A DNA stretch of 64,000 nucleotides, taken from Mytilus edulis. Taxonomy: Eukaryota. Where the stretch lies: positions 76,322,001 through 76,386,000 of the forward strand of contig NC_092352.1 in the NCBI RefSeq assembly GCF_963676685.1, given 5' to 3'. Both the position numbers and the translations under genes were made by a program. Below are positions 1 through 49,115 of this stretch, piece after piece. The notes under the pieces are model-generated. The model was given only the letters and a program-made list of their open reading frames with translations. It had not been told where the DNA came from and searched no databases. Each line of letters starts with the position of its first letter. Within the stretch, counting starts at the first letter, position 1.

Positions 1-1687
1 GATTAGTTTTAGAAACAACATTTGAAACTGTTGAACATTAAATATACTGATTTAAACACGAACACAAAGTGATGAATAAAACTGATAAACATTATACTCA
101 CATTATTGACATTTATCTTATTTGTTAACAAGTATTGTACCAAAAACATGTGAAACCAATAAAGGAAACAATTTTAAGTTTCTATTTCCGTATTAAATCA
201 ACATCTTCTTTAGCGACACTACGACATAGATTAGTTAACGTCAGATATTATTAGGTCACTTATAGGTGTCAGTAGACTGATATAAGTTTCACTTAACTGA
301 AGTATTGCACTTATAAGCAAAAAGTACTATTTATTATAAGGCAGACATTAGTACTGACTTCAATGTGAACGATTGCACATGTTAATCATTTTTCAATTAA
401 TTGAAGATTAAAGTGAACAACAGGAGATATTTTATGAAGACACATTTTCCAATGTGTCTCACTGTCAACTACACAACAGGTCCTTTTTTTTTTAAATAGA
501 CATATAAAAACGTACTAGCAGAAGTACGAAATCCGATATATTTAAAAGAAGAGTCCATAAAATCTTTCAACTCGAAAAATTAAAATGCTCAAGATGGCTG
601 GATCTATGTTTTTGTCCATTGATGTTGTAAAAGTAAATAAAATGGCAGATTAGTAAATCTGTGTCCAATATAATTCTTTTTATGAAACAATCAATGTAAA
701 ACTGTGTTTCATGACGGCTAGTTTATTGCTTTTCCCTTTTGTATTGTTTCATATTTTATAACAATTTATCAATCAATGAGTGAGACAAACTATACAAATG
801 GAAATGAAATTTCTATTTTCTTTTTGCGATCAGTTAATTTTAAGATTAAAAGAAAAGAACTGCATTTTATTGATCTCGAATAAATCTTCTTCAATTTTGT
901 TACACTGATAATAGAACAAAGTTTTTTTTTGAACGAATATTATGTACTAGGAACCTTACCGAGATCGCAACGACTTTCGACAGTGTCTAATCATAATGGT
1001 CTGCATAATAAATGTGTCAAAGATTATAGTTTTCCTTAATACGTGCAAGCGCACACATTGCGATAAGAAATTACCTGTCCTAAATTCTAAATGATGGAAA
1101 ATATGGCTATGGTAGTCGCAATACAACTCATTTTATATTTCGGAACTTGTTTAATGGAAGGTTTGGAGAGACAAATGAAATCCACGGATCAAAACGGTTA
1201 CTTCTAAATGATCCAGATGCCATCAACAACAGATTAAATAATTTGGAAAAGTCCCTACAACAACAACAAGCAACAATTTTACACCAACAAGCAACAATTC
1301 AACAGCTTGAACAAAATAACCCCTTAACGTGAGTAAAGTGTAAATGCTAGTAAAACCATATACTTACCTCTAACCATATTAAAATTTTCTGAATATGAAC
1401 TACACCCTATAATCAACTATCCTTTTACGCTATTACTGGCTATCCATATACCTAATGTTTGACTATCCCTTTACACTCTTACCGGGTATATGTTACCTTA
1501 TTACCGGCAATTGTTTTTCGCTTTTGTTTCTTTCATAGACACGGGCCCAAAATGAGATTGTTTTGTTTGTCTTATTGATCATTAGTTCTTTTAAAATGAA
1601 TACCGAAAACAATTGGCCATAAGTAATGCAAAACTTGATCCTTTGCTTGTTTAGAACAAATATGAAATATTTGCCACTGGACATTAA

Positions 1688-5213: not shown

Positions 5214-7868
5214 ACCAATTGTGAGGTTTTTGGGGCTAAATTGAGAATTTCTTATTCTATCTTTTTGAACCTACTAGTTTGATAAATAAATGAGCCTACA
5301 CTTATTTTCAGGACATGGATCGACATTTGTTCGTTGGGGAAGAAGTCAGTGCCCATTACAAACAGAGCTTGTTTATTCAGGTATGCAACTTGATAGCGCT
5401 GTTTTGAACTATATTACGATGAAAACAAGAAATGTATCAAATCAAAAGAAAAATGATAATAACTATGAAAATATTTCAAGGAAGACGATGTCGAATAATA
5501 TAAATTATGAGATACTTCTTTCATCAACCTACTTTCAAAAGTGTAGAAATTATAAGGAATGATTTTTATGTTATCCCGATTCCCGCATTTATGAAACAAA
5601 AACATGTTTACTGTATTTTCTTGAATATTTTCTCTTTTGCTGTTTATTCAACGGTAAAAAATGATAATTTAATTATTTTTCTGTATCGTAACTTTGATTC
5701 CTGTATGTACCAGTAATGAAATTATATGTTTTCCTTTATCCCATTAAGGTTATGCTGCTGGTCAGAATACTACTACGCCGCATACCAACTAGGCGGACCT
5801 TCAAATATGCTATGTCTACCGAAAGATCCAGAACTAAGCAATCGTACTGGATCATCAAACGGTCTTTTATATGGTACAGAATTCGAAGAAAATCATTTTG
5901 CACCAGGTTCCGCAGACGAAGATGTTCCTTGTGCCCTCTGTCGGAGTAACAATACCTCTTCGTCTGTAATGATTCATGGTAGAAAATCATGCAACTCCGG
6001 ATGGAAAAGAGAGTACTTTGGTATTTTAGCTTCTAATTGTTTTCATTGCAAAGCTTCGTCGTATATTTGTGTGGATATGAACCCTGAGTATATTGCAGGC
6101 GGAGAAAGAAGTAATGATAATAATTTGTTGTATGCAACAAGTATGAAGTGTGGTTCCCTTCCATGTCCTCCGTACCACAATGATTTGGAAGTATACTGTG
6201 TTGTTTGTTCAAAGTGAAGTTAGTTTGCTCACTTTTAATAAAGGTGACTTTATCTTAATAGCATCATTCGTATATGATTTTTGTTGTATATATTTTGAAA
6301 AATATATATGGCCAGGAGACGAGGAATAACGCCAATGAGTGTCTTTGTCGAATGTCAAATTGGATAAATTAAGTTCAGAACAGTCACACTGACGCATTAG
6401 CTACATAAGCAGTCGTTATTGCAAATGAAAATACGTTTTAGACCAGTAGATATTTCATTGTACGATTCATTCTAAAAATTACTGTTAAGCTCTCTGTATT
6501 TCAGCTGATCATATTACACGGCACGACTATAAATTCAATGTATATTAAATCAATAGAAAACTGAGGTTATGATTTTTTTCTAAATACTTGTTGTATGGTT
6601 ACTGTCTCATTGCATCCTTTTTTCTTTGTTTAAACATACAAGTAAATTCATAACTGTTTTTATCACTACTTGAAGACAGAACCAGTTTAATTTACAACTA
6701 CTATGCAGGACAATTTAGTACATTATCTTAAAATCAAGAATATGATGGTCTTCAAACAATCTGTACTCGATTTCTTTTAACAACTGCTTGAACCCTTTTC
6801 GCTGTTGTGCCAGTTAAATGACAACCAGACTGGCTATGCAGTGCGGACTTTGCTCGTAATTGAAGGCCGTACAGTGAAATGTAAGTGATAATTTCTAAGT
6901 CATTTTTGTCTTCTGTTGAGAGTTGTCTCGTTGGCAATCATGCCACATCATTTTAGATTATTCCTTGAGCATGATTTTTTTCTTTGTTGTTAGCCAGGAT
7001 AGTCTGTACATCTATTTTTGTATATGTGTTGCGTTTGTTGGTGATTGTAGCTTTCAATGGGAGGTGAAGGGTTTCTGTGTTTTACGGCTTGTGTGTTATT
7101 TGTGTTACCTGTAAAAAAAAAAAAAACATGAACAAAAATGATACATATAAATCAATCTTTAAAATGCTGATCAGGATAAGTTACATGGCACCTTTTCAAT
7201 TTGAACTTCGAATTTACTCATAAAAGAGTTCAATTTGTTTTTGTAATAATTGCAGCTTTCTGTTTTTATGGAAGGGTTATTGAGCTGAATGGTGTTTTTG
7301 TGTCATTTTGTGTAAGTGGATGGTCGGCTATGTGATTCAAATTCTCCTATTTTCCAAATACATGTTTTCCCCCTATTCAAAATAACCTACGACTATTGTT
7401 TATATGCAAGAAAACAATCAAGCCATCTAATTAATGAAAAAAAGATGATAAAAAGAAACTGTAATTGTTTAAGCTAAAATGATATTATATACTAATCAAC
7501 AAAAGAAACGATACAAGGCAATGTATTTTCCATATATAATAAAATTGGATACACTATACCGAGGTAAATAATTGCCCTATTGGTCTAATTTTACAGAGTA
7601 TTTTCTCTTCAAAGCCATTGATTTCAGGCAAAAATTGGAACAATTTTCTAGAAATTCCAATATCGATGTAAGAACTTTAAACTTTTAAACTTGAACAGGG
7701 TCTGATAAAATTTTTGAATGCCCTTTGTAGATATTTGAACACTTAATTCTCATTATCGAAATTAAGTACCGACTTTTGTCATCATTTTTCGCAAAATAAA
7801 TTTGACTGCTGTGTCTAATAGCTCGGTATTTCGTTACTTTCCATTTTAATCAAATTCTTTCACAGTGG

Positions 7869-9766: not shown

Positions 9767-11652
9767 AAATATAACATTTTAATCCTGGTATCTATGATGA
9801 GTTTATTTGTACCGTTTCTTTTGTTGACTAGTATATGTTACTTGTAACTGATCAAATTAAATTTATCGTTTTTTGTTTTTGTTAATTTTTTTGTTGATGT
9901 AGTTAAAAAGATAATGTTGTATTTGATATCTCTATTTGTGTGGTTCAATGCTACATGGAGATCATGCTTACCACTTACGGTTTTGGAATTTAGAAATGGT
10001 GCTACCCATCCTGCATTTATCTTTTTATGTGGATTATATGTCCCTTCAATTTAAAAGTATTAGCTTTAAGTAATCATGCGTGATGCCGTGTACCTATTAG
10101 ATGATTATAATTGTGTACGTAAATTTACTACCTACTTTTTGGAACTTTGGGCCCTTAGTACTCGTCAACTTTGTACATGGTTTGGCTTTCTAACTATTTA
10201 TTTTATCTCAGCGTCCTGGATGAGTCTTATATAAACAACACGCGCGTCTGGCGTATCAACATATAAACCTAGTACATTTTATAACTAATTAAAACTATGG
10301 AACAACTGTGCTTGTAAATAAATCCAATGTTTTATGTTTCATTGCAGATGACCATGGTCATTATTTAACATAGACTTTATGCTTTATGTCTATAGATAAT
10401 TCCGGATTCTTTTATTGATATAACATGTGGTATGGTTGTCAATAAGACAACTATCCACCAAAGTTGAAATAACGTGGATGTAAACACCTGTAGACAACCG
10501 TACAGCGAGATCATGAGAATAATCCGTAATATACACAGCTATTAAAAATGAAACAACACGTTATCAATTTAACACTTTTCCGTATTTACCTTCAACATGA
10601 ACACCCAAAGCCCCGACATGAAAATATGAAACAATTCAATAACGAAGCTAACGGCCTTATTTATAACAAATCTTAAACAATTTACGAATTACAAATATGA
10701 CAGATAAGTTTGTAAGCTGTTTAAAGAAAACCATATGCAAATTTGAAAATGGTGAAAACTTGAAAAATATACTGATTTAAACACTAAAACAAAGTGATGA
10801 ATAAAACTGATAACACTCACATTATTGGCATATATCTTCTTTGTTAACAATTAATTTATCACGAACATGTTAAAACCAACGAAGAGAACAACTTGTGGTT
10901 TTCTATTTCCGCATTAAATCTACTACTTTAGCGACAGAGTGACTTATAAAAGCTCATGTTAAAAATCATTATGGAGACATTATTATTTATTGACTTTCGT
11001 ATAGACGATGTCACCTGTTTAGATAATTAAAGAAGAGGCAATCAAACCTTTCAACTTGAAAAGATAGACTATGTCAAGCAACGGAAAGCATCAAAATACC
11101 CAAGATTGCTGAATTTGTGTTTTTGACCAATGATGTTGTTAAAGTAAATAAAATGGAAGATTGAAAAATATGTGCATAGAATATTTTTTATGATTCAATC
11201 AAAATAGAAAGGTATATCATGATGGCTTGTTTAATGTTATAATTTTTAATCTATTTACACTGGTTTAGTTTAAATCAGTTTATTGGTTTTCTCTTTTGAA
11301 TTATTTCACATTTCATAACAATTTATCAATCAATCAGTTAGAAAAACTATACAAAAGGAACTAAATTTATAATTCTTTATTTTTTTCTTTTTCTTTGCGA
11401 TTTATTTTTTTCCTATTTAAATAAAAGTACAGAATTTTATTGAAATCGATTAACTCTTCGTAACTTTTGTTTCACTGATAATAAAACCAAACATTATTTT
11501 GAACGACGAATAAGTACTTGAAACATGCAGCAAACCTTATCGAACTCTCAACGACTTTTAGAGGTCGGCATTATATTATATATGTGTCAAAGATTAAGTT
11601 ATTCCGTATATTGTGATAACGATTTACTTGTTCTAAACTAAAGATTGACAAT

Positions 11653-14309
11653 ATGGCTATAATAGTCGCATTACAACTCAGTTTATATTTCGGAACATGT
11701 TTAATGGAAGGATTGGGAGAGACAAATGAAATCCACGGATCAAAACGGTTACTTCTAAATGATCCAGATGCCATCAACAACAGATTAAATAATTTGGAAA
11801 GGTCCTTACAACAACAACAAGCAACGATTTTACAACAACAAGCAACAATTCAGCAGCTTAAACAAAATATTCCGCAAGGTGAGTAAATTGCCAAAGTAAG
11901 TAAAATATTTATATAATACTAATTCTGAATATTTTCCTCAATTTTAAAACGCCCTATAACCGGCTTTCCCTTTATCCTATTGACAGCTTTTAACCCTCTT
12001 ACCGGCTACGGATTTAACACCAAAATCTACTGTACAAAATTGCAACGGTAATTCGAATGGCAGACAAAATATGCTATATATAAAATCAGGAACAGATGTA
12101 ATTTGTGTGTCTGCTGTAAAGAATGGCCGTTTATAAGGTGTACAATTTGAAAATTAATTTCTTTACATGATTGGGCGTATTCTTACAGAAGCTGGTTCGT
12201 GAGATTATCAGCATCAAATATTTTCACAACTTCCATGAATAAACATAATTGTTATCGGTGTACATCTTGGAGGGCCAGCACTTATGAGGGTTATTCACAC
12301 ACTTAAACAAGAAAATGGTCATTTGAGACTTTTGTTGTAGTTAAGCATTGATTTATTTGAAGATTTTTTAATTTTTAAAAATGAATAATAGTGTTAACTG
12401 AAAAGAAATTAAAAAAAATGAGATAATTGCAAGAGGGAAAGGATTGTGATTAAAAATTAATGAAGAACAAACATCTGTTTGACACTGCTGGTTGTGTATA
12501 CTGTATCAGATTAGTTTTGAAGACCATCTTTTTCTGTAGGAAATTTCCTATAAGGCCGTAAATACCTGTTTTGAGAACTGGTGTTTTCCTTTGGACGTTT
12601 TTGTTTTATGTCATGGCATTTTCAATTTTGATTTAGTCGTACGACATTGAATATCCGTTAAATATGACATCTTTTTAAACAAACTTCGTACTCTAAGCAG
12701 TTCTTATAAAAAGAAGTAAAATATTAGTGATGCGTCTATCTGCTGCAAATCGATATTCCTTTTGTTAACCAATGACCTGGTCTTACTTTAATAAGTTCTC
12801 CCTTGACGGATATTTTCTTCCAGAGATACCAGATACCAGAGGGACAGTCGAAATAGCACACAAAACAACGTAGAAAATGAAAGACTAAGCAACATGTTTA
12901 ATTATATTTTATCTTTTAGAACAAGGATCTACTTATATACAGTGGGGAAAGGCATCATGTTCATCCATGGGGACAGAAACTATTTATTCAGGTATTCAAA
13001 TATTATTATGATGCATTTCTCAATCTGATACTTTTATAAGTCATTGTCCCTGTATATTTCATTCTGATACATTGCTGATATGTATTACATTGAAAATATA
13101 TGATATATTACTAAGAAAATTGAAATAAAGTAACATTTAACATAAAAGTGAAATGTTCAGTAACGTTTCTTTTGATATTTCAAAATAATTTTGAGATGAC
13201 AGCCACTGTAATATACCTGTCTGGAGATATTTGCTTTCAAAACAATAGGTCATTCTTTCGCAGAATACACAGATAATATCAAGTTAAACAAAATATGCTT
13301 TAAGTCATATGATAATGACATGTGTAAGGCGACGATATTTACTTTGATTGAAATTCAATCTATATTTAACGTTAAACAGAAGACTTAAAAGAAGCAAGAT
13401 TAAACTCTCTTGTGTGTAGGATTTTGAATATCTTATCAATTCTTAATGTAATGAAAACCTTACTATGACTTAAATGCTTGGACCCCTTACATTACGTTAA
13501 CCGTTAAACAAGTAATGTATGTCTTGCTTCATTCAGGTACAGTAATATTTTTTATCTGGCTGGATAACGATTTCTAAAGTTTATATCTAGATTAATGAGT
13601 AATTTTTGTGTCTCATTGTAAATGGGTTCTAGGACGTATTAAAACCTAATCTTAAAGATGGTCGGTAAAACGGGATTGAATTCAGTGGTTTTTTTTCACA
13701 AGCAAAACTTTAAAATATTATCTATAACTTGTCACAAAGAACATTCATTACGATGCTGAAAGATTGTAATTGAATGCATCCATTTTTAGTATTCGTTTTC
13801 ATCGATTGCAGCTTATATATTATGTTGTAGGATACACTGCCGGTCAACTTTATTATGACGCGTCATCATATCCAACCAGGTTTGGGGGACCTTCAAATAT
13901 GCTCTGTCTACCTAATAATCCGAAACTTAGTAACAAAACAGGACCAAGCAACAGTTTTATTTACGGAACAGAGTTTGAAGACAATTTTCTCAGGAATGAC
14001 GCTGCCAATGAAGATATACCTTGTGCATTATGCAGAAGTATGAATACAACTTCTTCTGTAATGTTTCCAGGTCGGAATATTTGTTACAATGGATGGAAGA
14101 CGGAGTATGAAGGCTATGTTATGTCTGGACATTGGGCACACAGGGCATCGTCTTATATTTGCGTTGATCTTCACCCAGATTACATTCCAGGCGGTAAAGC
14201 TGATACTAATGGCCAGCTGTTATATGTGACGGGTACTAAATGTGGTCCACTTTCTTGTCCTCCTTATAACGACAATATAGCTGTCAATTGTGTTGTTTGT
14301 TCTAAATAA
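11653..14309 (+). CDS. Cluster copy 2: intact secreted coiled-coil + short-chain collagen C4-like protein, ~258 aa; exons 11653-11878, 12920-12991, 13831-14309
   Basis: Signal peptide MAIIVALQLSLYFGTCLMEG, KRLLLNDPD, Q-rich heptads. Both introns are GT-AG phase 1 and the 777-nt spliced frame is open. Motifs TYIQWGK..C, CLPNNP, CALC, YICVD, CGPLSCPPY, CVVCSK. Confidence 0.9.
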
Positions 14310-17680: not shown

Positions 17681-17786
17681 ATGTTATCTTTTCAATGATA
17701 TATAATTTAGCCGTGTGTTCGTTGGGTGCATTAAAAAAAATTATGAATCAACCGCTGGTCTATTAATCCACGAAAATAAATGAATT

Positions 17787-19727: not shown

Positions 19728-20203
19728 GATATACTGCTGGTCAAGAACATTATAGTTCGTCATATGCAAACAGGTTTGTTTGAGCAGCAAATATGCTTTG
19801 TCTTCCTAATAATCCGAAACCTAGAAATAAAACTGCACCGGGCTACAGTTTTCTTTACGGAACAGAGTTTGAGGGAAATTTTCTCAGGAGTGACGCAGCC
19901 AATGAAGATATACCATGTGCATTTTGCAGAAGTTTAAATACAACTTCATCTGCAATGTTTCCAGGTCGAAATGTTTGCTACCATGGATGGAAGATGGAGT
20001 ATGAAGGCTATGTTATGTCCGGATACTGGGGACACAGGGCATCGTCTTATATTTGTGTTGATGCACATCCAGATTACGTTCCAGGTGGTAAAGCTAATAC
20101 AAATGGCCAGCTGTTATACGTGACGGGTACAAAATGTGGTACACTGACATGTCCGCCATATCACGATAATGTGGTTGTCAATTGTGTTGTGTGTTCCAAA
20201 TAA
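19728..20203 (+). pseudogene. Cluster copy 3: orphan terminal exon with in-frame TGA at 19781-19783
   Basis: Closely similar to exon 3 of copies 2 and 6; RFV* replaces RFGG. No exon 1 or exon 2 was found between 14.3 and 19.7 kb. Confidence 0.85.
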
Positions 20204-22689: not shown

Positions 22690-22754
22690 TATGTTATATT
22701 TTTGCCTATTATTGTAAAAACTATAATATTTAGATAGAAACGTTAGTGGCAAAC

Positions 22755-30479: not shown

Positions 30480-33400
30480 TATATGTTTAAAACTATCATT
30501 TCGATAACCTTCAGAAGCACAAAGATACCATTTAAATAACGTTTTCTCTGTTTGTGTTCAGTATTCACGGTCCTCGTATCTTTCTGTTTACATTCACCAA
30601 AACCCCGCGGAAATCTCACATGCGTAGGTGCGTTCTAAAAGTCATGTACGTTCGTACAACAAAGTTTACATTAAAAGTTATATAATTGTCTCGAATAAAC
30701 AGCTGTCACGGATGCAAAGAGCTATTGGAGAAACAATTATTTTAATAAAAATATAAATCTTTGTAAGATCTAGTTAAATATTTTATAGTTTTTCACTTGC
30801 TTTCCATCACGATATAATTAACGAGACGTTTTTTCAAACACAACAAAATCACCAACCATAAACAGCATTTTGTCCAATCACAGAAAGGATTTTCGAGCAT
30901 GCGTATTCTGTTACCATAGTTAAGCGTCCTTAAGTTCAAAGGGCACAAACCGAAAATATACCGACTACGTCGAAAAAAAAGAAGATGCGGAATGATTGCC
31001 AATGAAACAACTCTACACACCAAATGACACGGAACTGGCCCCTTAATAAAAATGTGTACTAGTTCAGTGAAACATCCCATCAGATTATAAAAAAAAGAAG
31101 ATGCGGAATGATTGCCAATGAAACAACTCTACACACCAAATGACACGGAAATGATCAAATCGTCCGACCTACAACAATGACCTACCTCTATACCAGTACC
31201 ACATAGTTAGAAAAAAGGCCTTGATATCACAAATTTAAAACAATTAAAACGAGAAAACAAAATGCCTAACAAATATGTTACACAGCAACAAACGACAACC
31301 ACTGAAAATGCAGGCTCCTGACTTGCGACAGGCACATACATACACAATGTGGTTGGGTTTAACATGTTTGCGGGACACCAACCCTCCCCAACCTGCCTGG
31401 GACAGTGATGTAACAGTTCAACAAATAACATAACTCAAATACGTTCAATGGACGTTTTTCCATCGTAGCGTTCATTCAGTCTACGTTAGACAAATGCTAG
31501 ACAAACGCCAGAAATACGCCAACATACGTTACTTGAACGCCCGATAAACGCGTATGTACGCCTCTCATAAGCTTTAATCATGCTTTAAGCTCGTTGTGCA
31601 TACGATACAGATATGATTGACAAGTTCGATGCGTCCAAAATTACTAGCGTATTGGCAGCGTACATAGTTTTATCCCACACCTAGCGTACGTCGGTGCTAT
31701 ACACTGATGTATGACGCCGATATATGTAGACGAAACACGTGTCTCGCGTATTAAATTATAAGCCTTAACGTGTACGGCTTTGATAACTATTTTAATTTTT
31801 TTTTCTCGTCCATGTTTTGATTTAGTGGCTATTTAACACTTTTTAATATATTAGTTTTATGATCGAAGAAATTGTGATCTAATATGAATAATGTTTAATT
31901 CTGTTTGTGCAATCAAGTTATGATAATTGTACACTTTTAACCAAAAAAAAGGTTATGCTGCTGGTCAGGAATACGTCTACGACAGTGCTCACTTTGGCGG
32001 ACCCTCAAATATGCTATGTTTACCGAAAGATCCAGAATTGAGCAATCGGACAGGATCATCACACAGTCGTTTATATGGTACGGAATTCGAAGGAAACAAT
32101 TTTGCTCCGGGTTCCACAGACGAAGATGTTCCTTGTGCCCTCTGTCGGAGTAACAATACATCTTCGTCAGTTATGATTCCTGGAAGAAAGTCATGTTACT
32201 CTGGATGGAAAAAGGAGTACTTTGGTATTTTAGCGTCTAATTGTTACCATTGCAAAGCTTCGTCGTAGATTTGTGTGGATATGAATCCTGAGTTCATTGC
32301 AGGCGGAGAGAGAAATAATGATAATAATTTGTTGTATGCAACAAGCATGAAGTGTGGTTCCCTTCCATGTCCACCGTACCACACTGATTTGGAAGTATAC
32401 TGTGTTGTTTGTTCTAAGTAAAATCATTTGCTTACTTTTAATAAAGGTGTCTATATCTCATTAGCATCATTTGTATATGGTTTTGGTTGTATATATTTTA
32501 ATTTTAAAAAAACAAATCCAGGGGAGGAGGAATAACGCCAATGAGACAGTAACACCACCTCTTCCTCACCACACTACAGAAATACTTCATTATTTTCAAA
32601 TTAACATAAGAATTTTAAAAACATTACATATTTCATTTTACAATTCATTCAAAAACAATGCAGAACAATTCATTGCATAATCTTAAAAAAGCTGATTGAA
32701 CTCTATCCAATGAAGTGCCTTTACCAAGTCATCCAGATAAAGCATGTGTTGTTCGATGTTGTTGTTAGTCAGGGAAGTATGTGGGTATATTTTTGTTTTT
32801 GAGTTGCGTTTGTTGGTGATTGTATTGTCCGATATACTGTCCGAAATGTTTTGTTTTCTCCTTGGTTTCATTCATTGAACCTTGATTGGGCGTGGTCGAC
32901 AATACATTCTGTTACTTCTCTATAGATAATATATTAGTTAGGTATCTACTCCAGCCATACAGTTAATTGCAAAGATAAGGACACGATATGAAAATGTCGT
33001 TATTATTGTAAAAGAGAGGAAAAGATACTTATATATTTCATATCGAGTGAGAATTTGATATTGCTTGATGTCAAATCGCGTTATTTAATTTCAATTTAAT
33101 AATAAACGAGAAGACGTGAAACCTATTTCTCTTATGGTCAGCACTTTCACTGTGTTGAATAAAAAATCCCGTGAATCGTTGATCTAGTCGTATGCACAAA
33201 TCAATATGACGTCAAATGTCCTGTTCCGATGTCAAACTTAAACATCAGACTTGCTAATTTTTTTCTACGACTTGTTATGAATTAAAATTTGACAAAATAA
33301 AGATATTCAGGTGAAAAGTGTGAGTTTTTTGTATATTATTCAATAAATCACACATGCCCGTTTCTAAGGACGAAATTAACATAGTCTTAACCGTTGAAAT

Positions 33401-35662: not shown

Positions 35663-35665
<3 letters not shown>

Positions 35666-35808: not shown

Positions 35809-38800
35809 ATGAACAGGGCATTAAGTTCTTGTGTTGTTTATTTTTGTTTGGCTTTTGCATTTGGAAAAAATGAGGACACACACACATTACACAAAAGACT
35901 TTTGTTAAATGATCCGGATATTGCTGCGACCCGACTGGCAAATGTGGAAGCTGCAGTTCAGCTGTTAAAGGGAACGGTATTAAAACTGGAAGCAGGTCTT
36001 CAGGCAGAAAAAAACAAAAATGCTGAACACGAGATAAATATTTCACAAATGACAAGCACTCTCAAAAAGCTACAAGGTATTTTACTGTTACGAAATAAGA
36101 CTCAAATGCTAGACATTAGTGTCTGTGATAGATTTATCAAACCTTATCTTATTCACATTTAACAAACTTTAAACTGTTAAAGATCCACTTTTAAATACGT
36201 TTCAATATTTTGATAATCAAATATCTTTACTTTATCTTTCATGGTCCTCATTTTTTGGGATATTGCTATCCAGTCTGGAAACAACTGGAAACACACATTG
36301 ATTTATTACTCACTATTTGACGACTTTATGCAAATGTATTATCTGTCTTAAAGAAATGTAAAATACAATTTTGTATAAAATTTAAAAAAAAAAATCACAG
36401 ATAAGCTGAGCTGAATAAATAGAGCGGTTTAGAAACAAATGAAAATTTAATAACAGTCTGTAAAACACGATGCTCCAATAACTCCAATGGTCAACCCCTT
36501 AAATCAACAATATAACAGCTAAATATTGACCATGTTTGACTGTGTGGTGCGAACAATAGACGTTTTTTTCTTCTAAATATGTTACCAATTGCTAATGCTT
36601 TAAGACGGATGATTACTCTATTTTGATAGATTTTGACGCATTTCGAGCTATTATTCTTTAATTGAGAAAAGAAAAATATGTCTAACATTATAAAAAATAT
36701 TATATCAAAAGTCTTGGTATGATTTGATTTGGGAAACAAAAAAAGTGAGTAAAAAAGTTAGAGCACCTGAGATCATCCCTAGTTTTTGGTGGGGTTCGTG
36801 TTGTTTATTCTTAAGTTTGCTATGTTGTGTCATGTGTACTATTGTTTGTCTGTTTGTCTTTTTCAATTTTTGCCTTGGCGTTTATTTTCAGTTTATTTTC
36901 GATTTATGAGTTTGACTGTCCCTCTGGTATCTTTCGTCCCTCTTTTAGTCCAATATTTCATGAAAACAAAGAATTATAGAATAATCAAAAACCTCAAAAA
37001 AAAAACAAATACTACACAACCACAATTTCGTTCATCTTTTTTATGTTTATATATTATAAGGTCTTTCCACCTTTCCGTGGAAAGACCTATTCATTTTGTT
37101 CTGATTATTTTTTTTTCTTCCTCCTAATTTGTTTCTTTCGCTGTATTTTGTTTTAAAAGATGTCGCTTAGTTTTTGAGTATATGATATTCAGTCTATACG
37201 CATTTGAAACTGATTTTATCCAGGTGGAAATACCTTCAATTGTTCTCTGAACAATAGGTTTTTAATCATTATTACCATTATTATTATAAGCTAACACATT
37301 GATGTATAAATTCATTCACATTAAAAAAGTGGAATTACATGTATTTTTTTTTTTTTTTTTTTTAGTTTTATTTCTTACAATCTCAGGTTTTTGGCGATAT
37401 CTGAAAAAAGAGGAGCAAAGATATAGTTCTATGTGTTTATCTGAAAGATGATAACCGATTTTTTTTCTGTTTTTTTTTTTTTATTTGTTTAGATAATTTT
37501 CTGGTCTGAAATTGGGATGAGAGGCGGATTTTAAAGAGCGAACATGCATATGGGCTCGGGTCCCCTACATGGATCAACATTTTTGGTTAACGCATAACAT
37601 TTTGCATCTTGTGTACTATTATTTGTCTGTTTGTCTGTTTATTTTTTAGCCATGGTGTTGTCAGTTTATTTACTATCTATGAGTTTGGCTGTCCCTCTGG
37701 TATCTTTCGCCCTTCTTTTGCAAGTCCCACTTCTTATATTGTTTTTCACTACCTATTCAAAATCCTTGATCCAAAACTTGTGATCTAATGTGAACTTCTC
37801 CGTTGATGGATTTTGTAATTCACTAGTTTCTATGAAATGTGTATTTCATTTTTTTTTTAGATCAAGGATCTACTTATATACAGTGGGGAAAGACATCCTG
37901 CTCATCCATTGGGACAGAAACTATTTATTCAGGTACTCAGTGATAAATGTGATGCGTTCCTCTAATGTCTAAAACTGTCACAACATATTCTATTCTTTTG
38001 TATTGGTGCTACATGTATATACTTTTGTGTTTTTACATAAATTATATAGCTAGGAAAATTAAAATGAGGAATATATATACGGCTTTACATGTACCAAGGA
38101 AATGGCATAAATGTGATATAGTATCCATCATAATATTGACAAATCAAAAGAAGTGTTCTAATATACATTACACTACTAAAGTTCAAAAATATTTTAAAAC
38201 ATCGTCAGATAAAATAAAAACAATTTAGCATGCTGAGCTGCACATGACTATAGACGCGTGTGTGCATTGAACGCTTTTCAACTTTATGTTAACAGTGAAT
38301 TGTATTTGATGTTATATTATACACTTGCCTACAATTTTTCTTGCTTCAAACCATACACAATATAATCATAACTATATCATATAAGTGACGCTCTCTTCTT
38401 TTAATTTGCACATGATAAAAGTAGTGGAATTTCCTAGGTAGTCGTCACTAATCAGTAGTGTTAACCGCCTACTCAAATACCCATACTTCTTCTATATTCT
38501 TTATTACATATGCACACACGGGCCTGTAGTCATGAGCAATTCAGCATGGTAAAGTGCATTTATCTATCTGACGTTGATTACAAAGAATTTTGAACTTTTG
38601 TAGTATAATGAAACGGCTCGAACACTACTTATGATCTGCCAAAAAGATAAATGATAAAAAAATCAGTCCATTATTGCCTTATTACTTTCCATCATATGTG
38701 TAAAATTGTTGCTCAACAGTCTACGCTTAATTCTAATTAAAAAAGAAGATGTGGTATGATTGCCAATGAGACTACTATTATTAGTATAATGTCTTACGAC

Positions 38801-39381
38801 GAATCTCCTTTACCATGTAGAATTCTTGTTTTGTCTATTTGTATAATAATCATCATGATTATCCGTTTGTCATCAATTATATCCTTATGTAATATTTTGT
38901 AGGATATGTCGCTGGTCAACTTTTTTATTCTTCGTCATCATATCAAAACAGGTTTGGAGGACCAGCAAATACTCTTTGTCTCCCTAATAATCCAAAATTA
39001 AGTAATAGAACAACACAAAGTTATAGCTTTATATACGGCGCAGAGTTCGAAGAAAATTTTCTCAGGAGTGACGCTATCAACGAAAATATACCATGTGCAT
39101 TTTGCAGGAGTCTTAATACCACCTCTTCTTCAATGTTTCCTGGTAGAAATATTTGCTACAGCGACTGGAAAATAGAATATGAAGGATATATCATGTCCGG
39201 ATACTGGGGACATAGAGCCTCTACATACATTTGCGTTGATGCACATCCAGATTACGTTCACGGTGGTAAAGCTGATGAAATTGGCCAGCGATTTTATGTG
39301 ACAAGTACAAAATGCGGTTCCCTCTCTTGTCCACCATATCACGATAACCTGGCTGTCAATTGTGTTGTGTGTTCCAAATAA
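35809..39381 (+). CDS. Cluster copy 6: intact secreted coiled-coil + short-chain collagen C4-like protein, ~272 aa; exons 35809-36076, 37861-37932, 38903-39381
   Basis: Signal peptide MNRALSSCVVYFCLAFAFG, KRLLLNDPD, longer heptad region; phase-1 GT-AG introns; open 819-nt spliced frame. Confidence 0.9.
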
Positions 39382-39602
39382 AATGAATACACCTATTAAC
39401 CAATGCTTGATTCACCTTTTTATGTCCTATTTGCAGATATTAATATTTTTTAATTGATTAGTTTGATTGGAATTGTGTGATTTTATATTAATTATTATAA
39501 GCCTTTTAGATATGTTTGTCTTCTACATCACTGATTAACATTTTGTTGTTTGTTTGTTGACAATTGCATTTGGTGCAGTTACTAGTAACTGATACCATTT
39601 AA

Positions 39603-39811
39603 GGAGGTAGACCTAGGTTAAGGGAAATAACTCTTAAAATCATCAGTACGTTTGTGTCAACTGTTTTCATAAATATATTCTAAGCTTCTAGGTTACATAG
39701 ATTATTTCCAATCTGTTTCAGGTAAATGCTTGAAAAACATTGATGAAACTTGACTTTAACAAACACATAACTGATTTAAAGAGTTATCTCCCTGAACCAA
39801 GGTCTACCACC
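39603..39811. mobile_element. MITE with TTAA TSD (Kolobok-like)
   Basis: TTAA-GGAGGTAGACCTAGG ... CCAAGGTCTACCACC-TTAA; an empty site with a single TTAA is visible in the paralog near 20399. Confidence 0.85.
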
Positions 39812-41074
39812 TTAATGTCAATAAAATCACTGGGCCGATAACTTCGATACCAGCATATTAGTCTCTTGTAGAATCAGCAGACCAGTAGTGCAATGCCTCG
39901 ATACTGCAATAACACAACTCATCAAAGAAGCAAGGTATATAATTTGACTCGTTTTTATATATGACTTATCGGTGTTTCTCGAATCAAGTTCCTTTTTAAA
40001 TCAGTTTACGGTCCAAAACAATGATGAAAAAAGTTGTGCCAAATTAGAAAATGTGTTTATATTGCAGGACCTGTGATATGACTTATCAAATTAAATTGAA
40101 ATAAAAGAACTTATCCCTTCAGGAATAATATATCTGATTTTTTGTCTGAAAATTAAAGGTACTGGCATCGAACACAAATTGCAAGGAATACATATAAAGT
40201 TTATATTCAATAATTACAGATGAATTACTGCAACCGTATAATTACATTTGTCATGGGGCATCGTTTGCAATGAATTATATTGATTTCCCAGTGTAAATAA
40301 AAACCGGTAATTTCACATGTGTAATAAACTAGTTTTTTTCATTCCTCTGACGTCATACAACAATAGGTGTTGACAAAACGTCGAAAACATCGTATCAAAA
40401 CAAATTGTGAATGCGTAGAAAAAGATATAGTTCCTTACATTGTCTACCTAAATTTCATAAAAAATGCAACTCACAATGTAATAAAGGGAATAAATAATCA
40501 AAATACCGAAAAAATCGTTAACTCGTGACCAAACACTGATAATTACGCACATTCGTGAATTAATGTGGTGTTCGGTCACTGTTGGAATATTTGTCTCTAT
40601 TTGAATTCTTCGATTATTTATTCTTTACTTCCCATGTTCGACTTTTGGTAAAATCTGTAGTAAATAGAGAGAAACTCAACAGAAACAAATATCAACATTA
40701 GAAGAAAAAGAAAAAAAAAGATTTCAGTCATGAACATCATTATAATCTACAATGTTTCTGAGCGGTCATTATTGAGGATGCATATAAATCCAAGTTAATG
40801 ATATAGGCGACTTAGAACTTCAATAAAAAAAATCACTTGATATTTTGTTTTCGTATCTGCATCTTTTGTATGGATAACAGGGAACCTGATGATTCACCTA
40901 TTTTGCTAATGTGGACTCTTGATAATGTTTGTATAACCTTAACAAATATCACGTTAATTATTTAAAAGTATTGTAAATGGTTTGACGCTTCCAATCTTCC
41001 TTTGTTTAGAATTTCGAAAGAAAAAATATCATTACATGAAAACTGTTCAGATATCAAGTTTGAGATCTGAATGT

Positions 41075-41332
41075 ATAGATATAGGAAGATGTGGTATGAG
41101 TGCCAATGAGACAACTCTCCATACAAATAACAATTTAAAAAGTAAACCATTATAGGTTAAAGTACGGCCTTCAACACGGAGCCTTAGCTCACACCGAACA
41201 ACAAGCTATAAAGGCCCCCAAAATTACTAGTGTAAAACCATTCAAACGGGAAAACCAACGGTCTAATCTATATAAACAAAACGAGAAACGAGAAACACGT
41301 ATATATTACATAAACAAACGACAACTACTGTA
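41075..41332 (+). repeat. Copy of an abundant interspersed repeat (GAAGATGTGGTATGA.TGCCAATGAGACAACTCT family)
   Basis: The same motif occurs on either strand near 4070-4160, 6840-6950, 18056-18150, 22000-22070, 30980-31190, 38745, 44040 and 50900. It is absent from the paralogous sites near 18815 and 23720. Confidence 0.7.
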
Positions 41333-41880
41333 GTATGTTCATGTAAAGCTGCAAGGTTGAGTGAGAATCCATGACCAAATTTCGAACATAAGTCGATTCA
41401 GATTACTCTGACGGCATGTTTATCAAGTTTTAAAAGAAAACATAGAACATGAAGAAAACGCAAACTTCTAATTACCCAAGGTACACATCGTTTGCGCATA
41501 TTATCTATAATGTTGTAACTTATGTGATGAAATTAAGCAAATTCCAAATATTTAAACAAAACCAAAAGCATGTCACTGGAAATAGAAGATTAAGAGTATT
41601 CGTTTTTGTTGCATAGGATAAATACGAGGAAAAGTACACAATATGCATAACGAACGCTCGCGAATGAACTTGGAGCTTGAGGCAATTATGATATCTAATT
41701 TGTAAAAATACTTAAAATGTTCTATACCAGTTACAAGAAAAACTTTGCTTTCTCATACACTGCCAGGTCATAGACGGGGCTTTACGTCCACATGGTGTTT
41801 GCAAACAATGTGTAAATCACTGTGCGTGTATTTGTATAACTTTCAGATAAGAAAGTTTAACCGTACTTATTTCGACAGAA

Positions 41881-44800
41881 ATGATAAAAATGTCGTTGGT
41901 CTTTCTTTTACAGTTTATGTTTTGTTTCAGTTATGGTAGAGAAGTAGAGAGTGTGGAATTCCCAGACGGAGACAAAAAACGTTTATTAATTAATGACCCA
42001 GACGCCATCAACAATAGGCTCGAACATTTAGAACGACCACTTCAACAACAACAAGCTACGATACTTCAACTAACAAGTAATATGCCTCTCAGTAAGTATC
42101 TTTAACATCAATGTAAAATGACTTTGTTAACAGTTGAGCGTTTGCTAATCCAAAAGGAGTTAGAGGTTCAAAATAAAAGCCTTCACGTTAACTGCATCTG
42201 ACAAAATATCCGAAGGCAGCTTTTAATTATATATTCGACACACAAAATGTTTAAATTAATTGTATACGGAAATTGAATATAAATATTCATGCAGTATTGT
42301 CTGAATAAAAATTTATCTCTCGTTGCAATTATTGAGTTTTGTTTTATGCCTTGCAAAATCTTGCTTTTCAAACAAAATATGGACACAAAGATAGTCGGCC
42401 ACTACTGTCAAATATTTTATGTATCTTCTTCTTCACAGTGAAGCACAATTTTGCTATTCAATTCCTTCAACAACGTGTAGCAATTTTGATACAAAGATAA
42501 AGGTAGTACCAGGCCTACTTTCAGTAGTGATTCACTGTCAGACACTAATCTTCCATATCATTCCTTTTCTATTATGACATACAATGTTTAAATCTCTCGT
42601 ATTGTGTCACAATATATCTATTTTTATAGTCCGTTGCGCTGTATGTTTGTAAAATGTAAAATGACAAAAATTCCAAATTCTAAATTCTAAAGGAAATTCA
42701 TAATGAAAAAACTCTTATCGAATGACAAACATCAAACGAAATGAAAACAACAGTTACTGTCATTTTCCTAATTTTGTTCAAACATTTTCTCTTGTAGAAA
42801 ATAAACAAGTATGTTTACACAGTTTTTGATACTTGATACCGATTATGGTCACATTAATCAATTATGTCTGTTTTGTTTCCTGCTCCAGTTCTAACAATAA
42901 ATCATTCAGCCCTGTTTAGTGCTGTTCACTCAATTTTCAGACAGATCCCCTGCCGTTAATTTACTACTGTTCAGACAATCAGCTTGCAGTAAATTCAATA
43001 CTGTTCAGAAGCTGTTCATGCAATAAGTATGATGCTAACGTGTACAGGTGAATACAACGACTGAATATCTAAACATAGACAAAACAGATCTAAATGGACT
43101 ACATGGAAATTGTCAGAACGGTACTTCATTGACCACGGTAGATAAGACTGCAAATAGACTGAACGACTGAAAAATACTTAATTATATATTGGTCAGTATG
43201 CATATGGTCAGAGTTGTTTTCAAAAGAGAAATTGTTTTCTATTGTGTTGTAGATGATCTTTCAATTTGGGTTGTACAAGTTTCACATGCATCAGTTTTGA
43301 GTGTGAACTATTCGAAAGTTCCGATTTGTTGCATAATAATTATTGTAGTGAATATGACAAAAGACATAACAATGAATATTTGGATGTTATTACTTTCAGT
43401 GTACACATCTATATATATTTATAGTTAACATTTTTTTTATAACTTTTTAGATCAAGGATCAAATTACATACAGTGGGGAAAACTGAGTTGTTCAGCTGCA
43501 AATGCAGAAACTGTTTACTCAGGTATAGTTTCGTCATTTTACTTATTCAAAATTAAGAAATAACAGTGCTGAGTTTCAAGTGATGAAACCGTCAATTTGT
43601 TATATAGTTTTTGTCTGTTGAATCGGAACAGAGCAAGTAAATTAGACATTTTGCGCGATCGCCATCCCTTAACACAATACTGTAATTCATACTATAGCAT
43701 AGTACTAGTAAAATGTTTTAAAAATTTGTTTTTTTTCTTAAATTGTTTAACATCTCACAGCGGTATACTACTGTTGTCTTTATTTATTCATCCCTTATTT
43801 AATTGATTTTGTATAAACATTGTATCATAAATCAACTTTATTCGTTCAGTGTATGTTCACGTGTGTCGTCAATACGTCTTTTGATTGAGTTAAGCCATTT
43901 CAATGCATCTGGCGTAAGTGTAAAATTTTAGTCCAGATATCTATGACGAGTTTATTGATATTCCATAGTGTTTCGTTCTATGTTGTGATGTTACACTATT
44001 GTTTCAAATAAGTCAGGAATCTGTAAATTGTGTCTTGGATGAAGAGTTGTCTCATTGGCCCTCATACCACATCTTCTTATATCTATGAAAAATATCACCG
44101 GAGTATCGTCCGCTATAAATGCAAGTTTGTTGACAATGATACATAACATCAATCGTGGACATCATATATTAAATTCATATGTCATTCAATAAAAATGACG
44201 ATATATGTCTTACTGCATTCGAATATAATGTTGTTGTCATTATGATCAATTGCTACTATGCAACCTCAAGCTTAAAGGTTATTTATTATATTTAAGTTTT
44301 TTCAGTCAATTGTAAAGAAATGTATTGAGAAATCACAACAATGCGTTCACACAGTACTTACTCTTTTATCAATGTAATAAAAAAAGGATTACGATAAAGA
44401 TTTCCGTAAAGAAAAGAACAATGGATTACAAATAATGTTTTTTTCTGGAATAGACACATGTATATACAATAAGATGAACCTTTAATGACTTCAACACAAG
44501 TTTAGATAAAAATACAGGAAATGATTTCAAGAAAAATACTGAAGAATCAAGACTAAATATTTGAGAAAATGTTAAGCCTTCATCTTATGTATATTTTTAT
44601 CTCAAGAGTCTTGCAGCTTTTCTACAGTTTTTAGTGTCAGTATCATAAATGGGGCAAAAGATACCTGAGGTACATTCAAACACATAGATAAAAAAACTGA
44701 CAACGCCATGACTAAAAGAAACAGAGACAAAACAGAAACATAATAGTCACAAGACACAACATTGAAAAATAAAGAATAAACAACACACAACGCATCAAAC

Positions 44801-45791
44801 ATAGCAGTTTACTAAACCTAAGTGTTGTCGAAAGTAAACCGGTCAGGTTTTTTTCCCATTTTGTTCCATTCTGATTAAATGTGAACTGAAATCATAGACA
44901 TAAATACATGTATAGCAAAGTTAACTGTAAAAATATATAATTTTGTATCAAACTAGCAAAAAATATCTAGTTTTTCAGCTAGGAGCAACATCTAAAGTAA
45001 GCATACTGTAAATTGTATAAGGTTAACAACACTATGAACATAAATTTTACAATTGTGAAAGTTGAAATAAAAAGATGTTGAATTATTGCCAATTTATCAA
45101 CTCTCAATTTGAGATCAAGCGACGTTTACGATAACAAATGGAGGTCATCATACGGCCTTAGACAATAAGCAAAAACAATGCATCAAAGCAAGTTATAAAA
45201 GGGCCCGAAATTGTTTTTATTAAACTATCTAAACGAGATAACTCACGGCCTCATTTATGTACACTCGCCTAATCTTCAAACTCATTTTGGCAGCTTAAAA
45301 GGTTTACATTTTGTAGGTTTTGCCACTGGACAGCACTATGATACAACAAAGTATTCAGACAGCTTTGATGGACCAGCCAACTTTCTTTGTCTACCTAATA
45401 ATCCAGAGTTAAGTAACAGAACAATTCCGGGTAGCAGTTTTCTGTACGGAACTGAATACGAAGAGAACTTTTTGCACAGTGACTCGGATGGTCAAGATGT
45501 GCCGTGTGCTTTTTGCAGGAGTCCCGGTTCATCTTCGACAGAAATGTTCCCTGGAAAAAGACCTGTTACAATGGTTGGAAAAAGGAATATTTAGGGTATA
45601 TAATGTCTGGGTATTTCGGTTATAGAGCCTCATCTTACATCTGTGTTGATATACATGGAGAGTATGTTCAAGGTGGCAAAGCTAATAGTGTCGGCCATTC
45701 ACTATATGCAACTGGTACAAAGTGTGGAACTCTTCCTTGTCCACCGTACAATGACAATCTAGCTGTGTATTGTGTGGTTTGTTCCAAATAA
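41881..45791 (+). pseudogene. Cluster copy 7: complete three-exon copy (41881-42091, 43451-43522, 45317-45791) with a single 1-bp frameshift near 45557
   Basis: Close paralog of copy 4. Exon 3 is 475 nt vs 476 nt (GGAAAAAGACC vs GGAAGAAAGACC). This could be an assembly error in an A-run. Confidence 0.7.
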
Positions 45792-46701
45792 ACATGTGCC
45801 ATACACATAAAACAGTCTCTTGGATTTCACTCTCATGAGTGCAAATTCGAACAACATATTTTAAATGTAGAATCAACCAACTTATCAATGATGTACCTTC
45901 CAATATGTGCAAAACAATTCGAAATTTTCTTTTGATACAGCTTGCATGGTTCTGCATCTTGAGACAAACATGTCCAGTAGGATATTTTTTCTCCCATAGG
46001 ATTTAAAAAAAAAACAAGACCGGATTTAAAGACATCCTATAGGATAAAGTAATGATCACGTAGGAGGGTTAGCTAGCTATAAAACCTGGTTTAATACAAC
46101 ATTTTCCTCAAAAGAAAATGCTTGTACCGATTCAGGAATATGCCATTTTGTCTCTTGTAGAGAGTTGTCTCCTTTGCAATCATGCGGCATTTTCTTTTTT
46201 TTTGTTTGTTACCTAAATAAACTTCATTATCAATTTTATCTATGTCACATTATGCTGTACAAATGTCATCCGCTAATTTTAAAATTGTACTGGTTTTGAT
46301 TATTTTTTCAAAAGGTCAAATTAATTGTCTAAAAGTTAAAACACTAAATTGTAAAGGGGTTCATGATCTTTTGTAAAATGGGACCATGTTAAGATGTTAA
46401 GAAATGGTGCATTTCTCGAATTTTGTTGCTTCACAATTTTTTGCCAAAAGGGTTAATATGTGGATGATGGTGAATGATATGTTCACTAAAAGCCAAGCTT
46501 TGTAAACACACATCGATATACTTGTAATTGTTGAACATTCGTCCTCTTGAAGTATGAACAGAAAATAATATTATTCTTCTTTCCTTACTTATGTTGCGTC
46601 GTATGGTTAGGTACGAAATTTATAATGTAGTTCAATACGTGCAATTGTTATCTAATTCGACCTTGTAAAGATAAAGTGAACAAATAGTGTTCCACCAAAT
46701 T

Positions 46702-49115
46702 ATGCCTGTGTTTAAAGTTCTTACTATATTGGTCGTTGTGTCTATAACGCTAGGACATAATGATGACACTGGTGATATCAATAAGCGTTTATTGCTGAGC
46801 GATCCAGATATTGAGGCAACCAGACTAGCTAACGTAGAAGCTGCAATACAGAACTTAATGGGAGAAGTTTCTAAACTTAAGGTAGATCTTCAAACGGAGC
46901 AGACAAGAAATGTTCAACATGAAACAAAAATTTCACAAATGACACAATCTCTTAGAATGCTTCAAGGTATGTTTAATTCGACTACGTTATATACCGCAAT
47001 GCGCAGAATTCTTTTTTTCTAAGTCTGTGCCTTAAAATTTTTTTAAAGTATGCATTCTTGGAATCAATATACACAAGAAAGGATATTTGAAACGGGAATT
47101 TAACATTTTTCAATGAAAGATGTGTATTTAAAGATACCTTTGAATGTTCTCTAAAAAACTGATTTCAAATTTCAGTACTAGTTTAATATAGATTAATTTA
47201 TCATATAATGATTCTTGAGAACTACATTGTATGTTGTTGCAGTGACACTTCTTTGTTGATATGAATGATTATTGATACGGTCATAATAATAAATCAAATG
47301 TTAACAAAACATTACATTTTCGAAATTCTAAGGCATTTCTAGCTCAGGAATATATAACTTTGGTTGTATTTGGCAAAACTTTTAGGCATTTTTGGTCTTC
47401 AATGCTCTTCCACGTCGTACTTTATTTGGCCTTTTTTTACTTTTTTATTCGAGCGTCACTGATGAGTATTTTGTACAAGTAACGCGCGTCTGGGGCTAAT
47501 ACAAAATTTAATCCTCGTATTACCAATGTTATTTCAACTGATCGGGTGGAGCTTATGTTTTAATTTGCATAAGGAAAGTCTATTTGAATATGTGTGTGAT
47601 TAGGATGATTACCGTTATAATTATTATTGAATTCTAATCACCTATGAGTGTCACCAAACGCATATACAAAAGAACTGAGTGTATGATATCGGACGAATAA
47701 CTGGACACTTCATTGATGAGTTTATCCCAAAACTCCTGTCTATAGATGTACTGGGGTTAACTAAGCGAACTTTTAAACCCCGCCCAGTCAAGTGAAATAA
47801 ATCTAGTAATATCTCTGATGAGTTCATTAATGTTTCTGTAGAAATACACATTATATACTCGAAGTACCGATTTTCCACACTGCATATAGTTTTAATTGTT
47901 TTATTTTAATTATTTTTTTAGAGTACGGTTCTTCTTATATCCGTTGGGGAAGAACACAGTGCGATGGAGCAAACTCAGAACTTGTTTATTCAGGTATCAG
48001 CATATGGTCAAAATTGCAGTCACAACAGCTTTTTCAATCGAGCATTATATGTCTTACAGGAAAAAAACTATTAATCTATATTTGCATTGGTACTGATAAC
48101 AGATAATTATTTTCATATAAGATGATATCATATCGAACAAAAAGTCTGCATACCAAAAAGTCTTCATCAGCGTCAAATTTAAACATGTTAGACTGTTATC
48201 CTATTTCACTTATAATGTACTTTCAAAGTCTTCGTGTACTAACTAAGACTTGCAATATTGACAAGCGAACGCATATGAAAATATACTACCATGTAAGTCG
48301 TTATACATACATTTGTTGTGACGTAAGCCTTTTCAGTTATCGCAATACTAAGTCATGCCTTTTATTGAAAAAATCATTCCTACAGTCCACCTACGGACAC
48401 CCTAATGAGTTGTTGCAAGGGATATATAATCACCCCAGTACAACATTTAACACTTTGTCTATATGAGAAATGAACGGTTTGATTTTCATTCTCATTCGAC
48501 ATGGCTGTGCCAATATATACGGAGTAAATCCCCCCCACCCCACCCCCCAAAAAAAAAAATAATCCATACGAATATTGAGATTTGTCAGGGGAAGGGAAAG
48601 TAGAAAAAAGATGTACTTATTATTTTAAAAATATTTCAGGATATGCAGCTGGTCAAATATACTACGACAGTAAATATACAACTCGCTTCGGCGGTCCAGG
48701 AAATATGCTCTGCCTTCCAAATAATCCAGAGTTAAGTAATAGGACTGCACCTGGAAGCAGCAATATATATGGTTCAGAATTCGAAGAGAGCACATTTGGT
48801 CATGGCTCACGACAAGAGGACGTGCCTTGCGCTTTATGTCGCAGTAGAAATAGCACCACATCAGTAATGATTCCAGGGCGAAAAACGTGCTTTAAAGGGT
48901 GGAAGATTGAGTACAATGGACTATTAGCTTCTAGCTGCAACACATGTAAAGCGTCCTCTTACATCTGTGTAGATAAAAATCCTGAATACATACCTGGTGG
49001 TGAAACCAACGACAATCACAACCTCCTATACACAACTGGTACCATCTGTGGATCTCTACCGTGTCCTCCGTACCACAATAACCTGGAACTGTTGTGTGTG
49101 GTCTGTTCAAAATAA
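46702..49115 (+). CDS. Cluster copy 8: intact secreted coiled-coil + short-chain collagen C4-like protein, ~270 aa; exons 46702-46966, 47922-47993, 48640-49115
   Basis: Signal peptide MPVFKVLTILVVVSITLG, KRLLLSDPD, SYIRWGRTQC, phase-1 GT-AG introns, open 813-nt spliced frame. Confidence 0.9.

Follow-up and report, generated by a model that had tools for sequence, protein, structure and literature searches.

Background and locus

Chimeric genes produced by non-allelic recombination in tandem arrays include the glycophorin A/B hybrids, the CFHR hybrids and KIR; at protocadherin and Dscam-like loci, variable first exons are spliced to shared or alternative downstream exons. Here we characterize a tandem cluster of short-chain collagen C4-like genes (the label of the family in Mytilus) in a 64,000-nucleotide stretch of the Mytilus edulis genome G000, C9:76322001-76386000, where C9 is its contig; the whole stretch is called the window below. 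Eight tandem copies were found, six of which retain exon 1 (signal and stalk). Stalk and head exons have different histories, probably because copies recombined non-allelically in intron 1 two to four times, long ago. As in the glycophorin, CFHR and KIR hybrids, breakpoints are intronic, an N-terminal module is exchanged in frame and haplotypes differ in copy number; unlike those hybrids, the mussel genes exchanged parts between far more divergent partners, in events that are apparently old and partly common to several species.

Spongins combine an NC1 domain with a short collagenous one and have seven cysteines in common with collagen IV and three spongin-specific ones (available part of PMC5395295). 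The mussel head is predicted to fold as collagen IV NC1, like spongin short-chain collagen (C4), and many Mytilus relatives are so labelled; unlike spongins, the mussel proteins have no Gly-X-Y domain and carry a predicted coiled-coil stalk in its place. We do not class the family as collagen; its head is NC1-related. ‘Short-chain collagen C4’ also appears among M. galloprovincialis gill transcripts (available part of PMC4581086), which need not come from the window cluster.

Bivalve C1q-domain and fibrinogen-related proteins have a signal plus coiled-coil architecture and large expansions (PMC8878817), and the available part of that paper does not describe shared or exchanged stalk exons. The mussel NC1-like family has the same architecture and is likewise expanded (at least 150 scored head matches among 291 candidates in G000), and in this genome exons of C1q and fibrinogen type are preceded by stalk exons of the same families, as judged from adjacency. 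It differs in its unrelated head domain and is known here from sequence and models. Gene presence/absence variation has been reported in Mytilus, with exon shuffling ruled out for the CRP-I family (available part of PMC10138031). The arrays described below similarly vary by animal in the copies present or intact; unlike CRP-I, the window family displays exchange at the exon level.

Stalk and head exons group the copies differently

All features described here lie on the + strand of the window, whose positions are used throughout. Exon 1 falls into the three types proposed in a preliminary description of the sequence: A in copies 1 (1091..1328) and 2 (11653..11878), B in copies 4 (24331..24553) and 7 (41881..42091), and C in copies 6 (35809..36076) and 8 (46702..46966). 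Within these pairs identity is 92, 86 and 63%, respectively; it is 61–62% between A and B and 42–51% between C and either of them.

Exon 3, the head exon, divides the copies in another way. Type X is found in copies 1 (5749..6217) and 5 (31952..32421), 89% identical; type Y in copies 2 (13831..14309), 3 (19728..20203) and 6 (38903..39381), with 85% identity for 2/3, 78% for 2/6 and 80% for 3/6; and type Z in copies 4 (26452..26927) and 7 (45317..45791), 88% identical. X and Y heads are 57–63% identical. The preliminary description had the same groups, with copy 8 (48640..49115; a CxxC-loop head) as a further, more distant member of X; this placement found no support. The copy 8 head is 66% identical to that of copy 1 and is outside copies 1/5 or unresolved in wider trees, and the CxxC loop is also present in a gene 0.7 Mb away; four head types, copy 8 being its own type (X8), are therefore the safer count. 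Exon 2 is of type X in copies 1 (5312..5380) and 5 (28233..28301), Y in copies 2 (12920..12991) and 6 (37861..37932) and Z in copies 4 (25438..25503) and 7 (43451..43522); that of copy 8 is at 47922..47993.

Copies 1 and 2 are 63% identical in exon 3 despite 92% in exon 1, and copies 2 and 6 are 49, 93 and 78% identical in exons 1, 2 and 3. For the six copies with exon 1, the approximately unbiased (AU) test rejected the head topology on exon 1 data (p 1.4e-9) and the stalk topology on exons 2 + 3 (p 4.0e-5), the incongruence that the preliminary description had expected. Exon 2 alone agrees with the head tree (p 0.043); because exon 2 follows the head, the exchange is placed in intron 1.

We also compared 53 genes (6 in the window, 47 elsewhere; 1378 pairs) picked by a stalk match upstream of a head. 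Heads were below 0.72 identity in 2 of the 25 pairs with stalk identity of at least 0.80, and stalks below 0.62 in 3 of the 38 pairs with head identity of at least 0.75; all five mismatched pairs involve only the window cluster or its neighbour cluster, in a test that is blind to swaps among uniform copies. An apparent chimera at C6_34.61, seen in an ungapped stalk comparison, was caused by a one-residue gap and disappeared with gapped alignment. Separately, the model P0134 from another M. edulis assembly, a relative of 13831-20203, has a Y head whose first half resembles copy 2 and second half copy 3; it is possibly a recombinant within exon 3, or a fused model.

Breakpoint and intron phase

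The segment shared by copies 1 and 2 consists of ∼1 kb of upstream DNA, exon 1 and ∼100 bp of intron 1. In blastn comparison, 20..1434 is homologous to 10741-11981 (72–79% over pieces), and the similarity stops ∼100 bp past the exon 1 donor, where a breakpoint had been predicted; 10741..11981 is the putative exchanged segment on the copy 2 side. Across exon 1 types, the first introns have only dispersed repeats in common (∼75% identity).

Phase 1 was found across the family for 48 of 48 exon 3 acceptors, 57 of 59 exon 2 donors and, under a strict rule, 51 of 59 exon 2 acceptors. The earlier statement that phase 1 introns make swaps frame-compatible was thus correct as to phase and frame, though the layout is general to the family, not special to the cluster. 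Since phase 1 holds family-wide, frame compatibility is inherited and permissive and is no sign of a designed system.

Chimeric genes in other animals and assemblies

The A-Y gene of copy 2 is spanned, exon 1 to exon 3 (11771-14072), by a single 2311-base DNA contig in run X5 from another study. In an RNA library of another animal (X15), both A-X and A-Y occur as contigs. Record 14 agrees fully with copy 2 in exon 1, differs from it twice in exon 3 and has a 72-base middle. In record 9 an exon 1 of type A, with 9 differences from its copy 2 counterpart, is joined to an X head that has 21 relative to copy 1. Over the compared exon 1 stretch and tail, 6 positions separate copies 1 and 2. Since exon 1 of copy 2 is matched exactly by record 14 but with 9 differences by record 9, the latter fits an allele of copy 1 and not a splice of copy 2 to copy 1. 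Its middle is 88 bases, one more than the broken reference predicts (87), so the allele is likely in frame.

In a survey of joints in four runs (the RNA status of two being guessed), splice joints of copy 7 (B7-Z7) were present in 3 and 4 of the 4 runs, with the extra base at the frameshift in all four, and those of copy 8 (C8-X8) in 3 of 4. Spliced contigs from other animals thus represent A-X, A-Y, B-Z and C-X8. C-Y is found as gene model P0004 of another M. edulis assembly, which differs from the copy 6 protein by one residue; P0004 was the sole return of a longer-protein search with the C stalk, which says little either way. Raw RNA of run X22 (∼6 in 100 of its reads) gave zero depth over the exons of copies 1-2, which is no proof of non-expression. 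Given the A-Y and A-X RNA contigs from another animal and the C-Y model in another assembly, the chimeric genes exist outside this assembly and misassembly is unlikely.

Cross-gene splicing had been proposed as well. It is frame-compatible, but all four listed GT..AG joints (among the 15 of 55 joints shown) lie within one gene and none crosses copies; contigs drop rare splice forms. Every intact copy ends in a head and a stop of its own. Gene model P0139 (41881-49115) joins exons 1-2 of copy 7 to exons 2-3 of copy 8. This is likely an annotation repair that dodges the copy 7 frameshift; RNA contigs show normal within-gene joints.

Number and age of the exchanges

The stalk and head trees of the window agree after copies 1 and 6 are dropped, and dropping copy 2 alone is insufficient; since one removal is not enough, the minimum is two exchanges. 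With M. galloprovincialis and M. californianus proteins included, three or four moves are required (a count read from the trees), and stalk clades A, B, C and head clades X, Y, Z are supported at 86–100. M. galloprovincialis annotations contain A-Y, A-X, C-Y and B-Z and the additional forms A'-X (P0019, P0126, P0127), A''-Y (P0035) and C'-Y' (P0034), C' having no match above 58% in G000. B-Z is annotated in M. trossulus and A-Y in M. californianus (P0003), where the counterpart of the A stalk is 95% identical. The B stalk was seen with Z heads only, and 5 of 12 possible type pairs were seen.

Synonymous divergence (dS), estimated on short exons, is 0.17–0.20 for A1/A2, 0.29–0.45 for the block-duplicate pairs, 0.40 for Y2/Y3 and 0.87 for Y2/Y6, and is saturated for C6/C8. 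Judged from these sequence comparisons, the exchanges appear to be old (dS at least 0.2) and partly common to several species.

Mytilus animals differ in the set of copies that their arrays contain or keep intact. The order in one M. galloprovincialis contig is A'-X, C'-Y', Y3, B-Z, one unassigned record, B-Z and X8. It matches a tidy model in which a block A-X, C-Y, B-Z was duplicated and A-Y was made once; this model does not agree with a M. californianus A-stalk head placed beside Y6 or with the higher Y2/Y6 dS. Because of this conflict with tree placement and dS, we leave the direction of the swaps open.

Proposed mechanism and alternative explanations

We propose that recombination in intron 1 brought exon 1 and the DNA upstream of it from one copy to a position before the head of another. 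The initial event would have been unequal crossing-over, with tandem duplication and loss coming later; phase 1 introns from the family ancestor would have kept the products in frame, and later block duplication, pseudogenisation and presence/absence variation may have led to the present arrays. Through a swap, a head would probably gain a new promoter, signal peptide and stalk. The earlier proposal that intron 1 recombination made chimeric genes is supported by the copy 1/2 breakpoint and the AU tests.

Several observations weigh against this account. The breakpoint is mappable for copies 1/2 only; that of C-Y is not, and copies 2 and 6 have almost no common intron 1 sequence before exon 2. 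The Y-head tree is weakly resolved. No DNA contig was found to cross copy 1 intron 1 (4 kb), and no RNA contig in the four-run joint survey bridges C-Y copy 6, although this is no proof of non-expression. The M. californianus A-Y model has no exon 2 and is a weaker witness. Finally, A1/A2 exon 1 (dS ∼0.2) is closer than its own flanks (67–79%) and than Y2/Y3 (dS 0.40), a sign that exon 1 may have undergone conversion later on.

Gene conversion, in which exon 1 and its upstream DNA were overwritten in place by those of a neighbour, perhaps repeatedly for copies 1/2, would give the same outcome by another mechanism and may coexist with crossing-over; as the explanation of the cluster we consider it unlikely. 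The excess of coding identity over the flanks (92% vs 67–79%) speaks for conversion, as does the nesting of A1 with Y-bearing A stalks, the other X-bearing A stalk (P0019, P0126) being basal with support 93–94. Conservation of exon over flank is, however, also expected under purifying selection, as the 95% identity with M. californianus illustrates, and conversion requires homologous sequence on either side, a requirement implausible for A/C (42–51%) or for the unrelated D stalk described below. That exons of different copies were simply joined in assembly can be set aside almost entirely. Copies 1 and 7 do show, in short homopolymers, three losses of one base that resemble sequencing errors, and the array is repeat-rich; but apart from the DNA and RNA contigs spanning A-Y, A-X is present in an RNA contig and in M. 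galloprovincialis models and C-Y in another M. edulis assembly, the copies are too divergent to collapse, and the copy 1 breaks are covered gap-free by DNA contigs of X1 and X5. An assembly artefact is largely refuted.

The preliminary description had gone further and seen in the cluster a generator of a combinatorial repertoire; in the strong form of this reading, frequent intron 1 recombination or cross-gene splicing would yield many pairs within or between animals. Every junction is indeed frame-compatible, the M. galloprovincialis arrays hold A'-X, C'-Y' and A''-Y, which were not found in G000, P0139 joins exons of two copies, and a young 6.3 kb exon 1-2 duplication lies in the neighbour cluster. 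Yet the intron 1s offer no high-identity substrate beyond their ∼75% dispersed repeats, dS is at least 0.2 for every pair, only five of twelve type pairs occur, with B on Z only, and the listed GT..AG joints are all within genes. P0139 spans the copy 7 frameshift, X15 record 9 fits a copy 1 allele, two old exchanges fit the window, and 4 of the 8 copies are broken in this haplotype. An ongoing generator is thus very improbable; on present evidence, non-allelic recombination in intron 1 probably acted in a few old exchanges and not as an active combinatorial system.

Predicted structure of the protein

The AlphaFold model (mean predicted local distance difference test score, pLDDT, 86.6) comprises a helix resembling a signal peptide, a second, long helix (38-71) and a head rich in beta structure (78-257). 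The head gave 14 Foldseek matches to collagen IV NC1 at E of at most 0.001 (best 2.5e-4); its superposition on NC1 has Z 7.0 and a root-mean-square deviation of 4.2 over 143 aligned residues, a middling Z above the unrelated rows. The likeness is at the structure level only, with no sequence match to PDB chains. No curated Pfam match was found for four heads and four stalks, and no Gly-X-Y run of at least 4 in the five proteins checked. By plain count, nine cysteines are at least 90% conserved and ten are in the head of P0001. Membership of the apextrin C-terminal family, suggested by one UniRef label (ApeC), was not confirmed: none of four exon 3 heads matched Pfam ApeC at E of at most 1.

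A three-chain model scored 0.91, the best of three controls 0.00; its runs agree in at least 89% of contacts with pLDDT of at least 84, and the contacts involve stalk heptad positions and the interface between heads. In a calibration on eukaryotes, 17 of 29 solved pairs and none of 30 single chains attained this mark. The model supports trimerisation but does not show it, because the calibration does not extend to three copies and the predictor may have learned from solved NC1 trimers. The protein is thus predicted to be a trimer with a coiled-coil stalk and a collagen-IV-NC1-like head, without collagen repeats. Secretion was called from a hydrophobic N-terminus judged by eye, and the secreted oligomeric product of the preliminary description agrees with these models.

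The neighbour cluster and stalk exons elsewhere in the genome

A second cluster of the family lies on the minus strand at C9:76.545-76.695 Mb (L015, L027, L034, L047-L055), 160–310 kb from the window. Its stalk E is combined with P as well as Q heads (82% identity in exon 1, 68% in exon 3); Q heads are also found with F stalks and P heads with D stalks. AU tests gave stalk/head incongruence (p 1e-55 and 0.003), and these swaps are independent of those in the window. In the same cluster, C9:76648829-76661380 (L027, L062, L034) contains a 6.3 kb tandem duplication, 97% identical, of exons 1-2 without exon 3, either a young partial duplicate or an assembly duplication. Elsewhere in the family, L057:5712-6798 (C9:28.83 Mb) has about a dozen degenerate tandem exon 2 copies inside intron 2, and three copies at C13:30.08-30.19 Mb (L018, L019, L024) are 98–100% identical over stalk and head, by very recent duplication or assembly redundancy.

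With ∼2 bits on the window stalk-family profile, the D stalk appears unrelated to that family. It has 43 matches in G000; downstream of the nine fetched we found a fibrinogen exon in four, a C1q exon in two, nothing recognised in three and no NC1-like exon. The closest match, 68% identical, is upstream of a fibrinogen exon, and the D stalk junctions inspected are phase 1. One mollusc cluster matched the D stalk in the Atlas at 0.77, a lead only. Eight loci have window-type stalks with no listed head; within 10 kb of them lay a family exon 2 (four loci), a C1q exon (two) or nothing recognised (two). The loci where a stalk exon of the D or the window family precedes a fibrinogen or C1q exon are L068, L069, L072-L075, L082 and L084, by genomic adjacency only.

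Copies and other features of the window

A profile hidden Markov model scan of the window detected exon 1 six times, exon 2 seven times and exon 3 eight times, and no further family exons in 20 kb upstream or 10 kb downstream. The cluster runs from the first ATG at 1091 to the last stop at 49115, and contains eight copies, as first described; only copies 2, 4, 6 and 8 are open here (254–272 residues), copies 1, 3, 5 and 7 being broken in this haplotype.

In copy 1 the frame is broken in exon 1 and exon 3: exon 1 has a length of 1 mod 3 only via two compensating one-base changes, and exon 3 is one base short, a base that is present in X15 record 9. Copy 2 encodes 258 aa, identical to M. edulis P0001, a record not independent of the window. 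Copy 3 consists of exon 3 only and contains an in-frame TGA; it belongs to a ∼5.9 kb segment (85%) that duplicates the copy 2 3' region in tandem. Copy 4 (B-Z, 254 aa; P0135) is intact. Copy 5 has no exon 1, an AT donor at exon 2 and an in-frame TAG in exon 3; its M. galloprovincialis relatives have an A-type stalk. Copies 6 (C-Y, 272 aa) and 8 (270 aa) are intact, and exon 3 of copy 7 carries a frameshift that is absent from contigs of 4 of 4 other runs. The block 38860..45807 (Y head, B exon 1, Z head) is a duplicate of 19718-26943, with non-coding identity of ∼66–79%.

Intron 1 of copy 1 contains a 2 kb element (1816-3785), very deep in DNA runs, whose terminal inverted arms of ∼510 bases are 95–99% complementary; it is likely a young non-autonomous DNA transposon. 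At 22750-23298 a 45-base unit is repeated in tandem ∼12 times, an expansion of the single unit at ∼18030-18190 in the duplicate segment. In copy 5, a pseudogene, intron 2 (3.6 kb) is filled with nested inverted-repeat remnants (28768-31723).

Significance

The locus combines tree incongruence, an intronic breakpoint (copies 1/2) and matching intron phase in the exchange partners: this is exon shuffling of the ordinary kind, in a family that has received little description. As a mechanism it is textbook; a literature search, with subscription papers mostly outside it and supplements excluded, found no paper on stalk-exon exchange in this family. Neighbouring genes 1 and 2, with a near-identical front end and heads only 63% alike, make this a clean, testable case within a large, little-studied mussel family.

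More tentatively, and with less than even likelihood, phase 1 exons for signal peptide and trimer stalk, together with their promoters, may be mobile plug-in modules that move among paralogous heads in tandem arrays, as in the two clusters, and among the unrelated NC1-like, C1q and fibrinogen families, some exchanges still segregating between animals and re-wiring the expression and trimer partners of secreted defence proteins. If stalks do move among these heads, this would explain hundreds of bivalve proteins with a signal, a coiled coil and a globular head, and whole-gene trees of such families would mislead.

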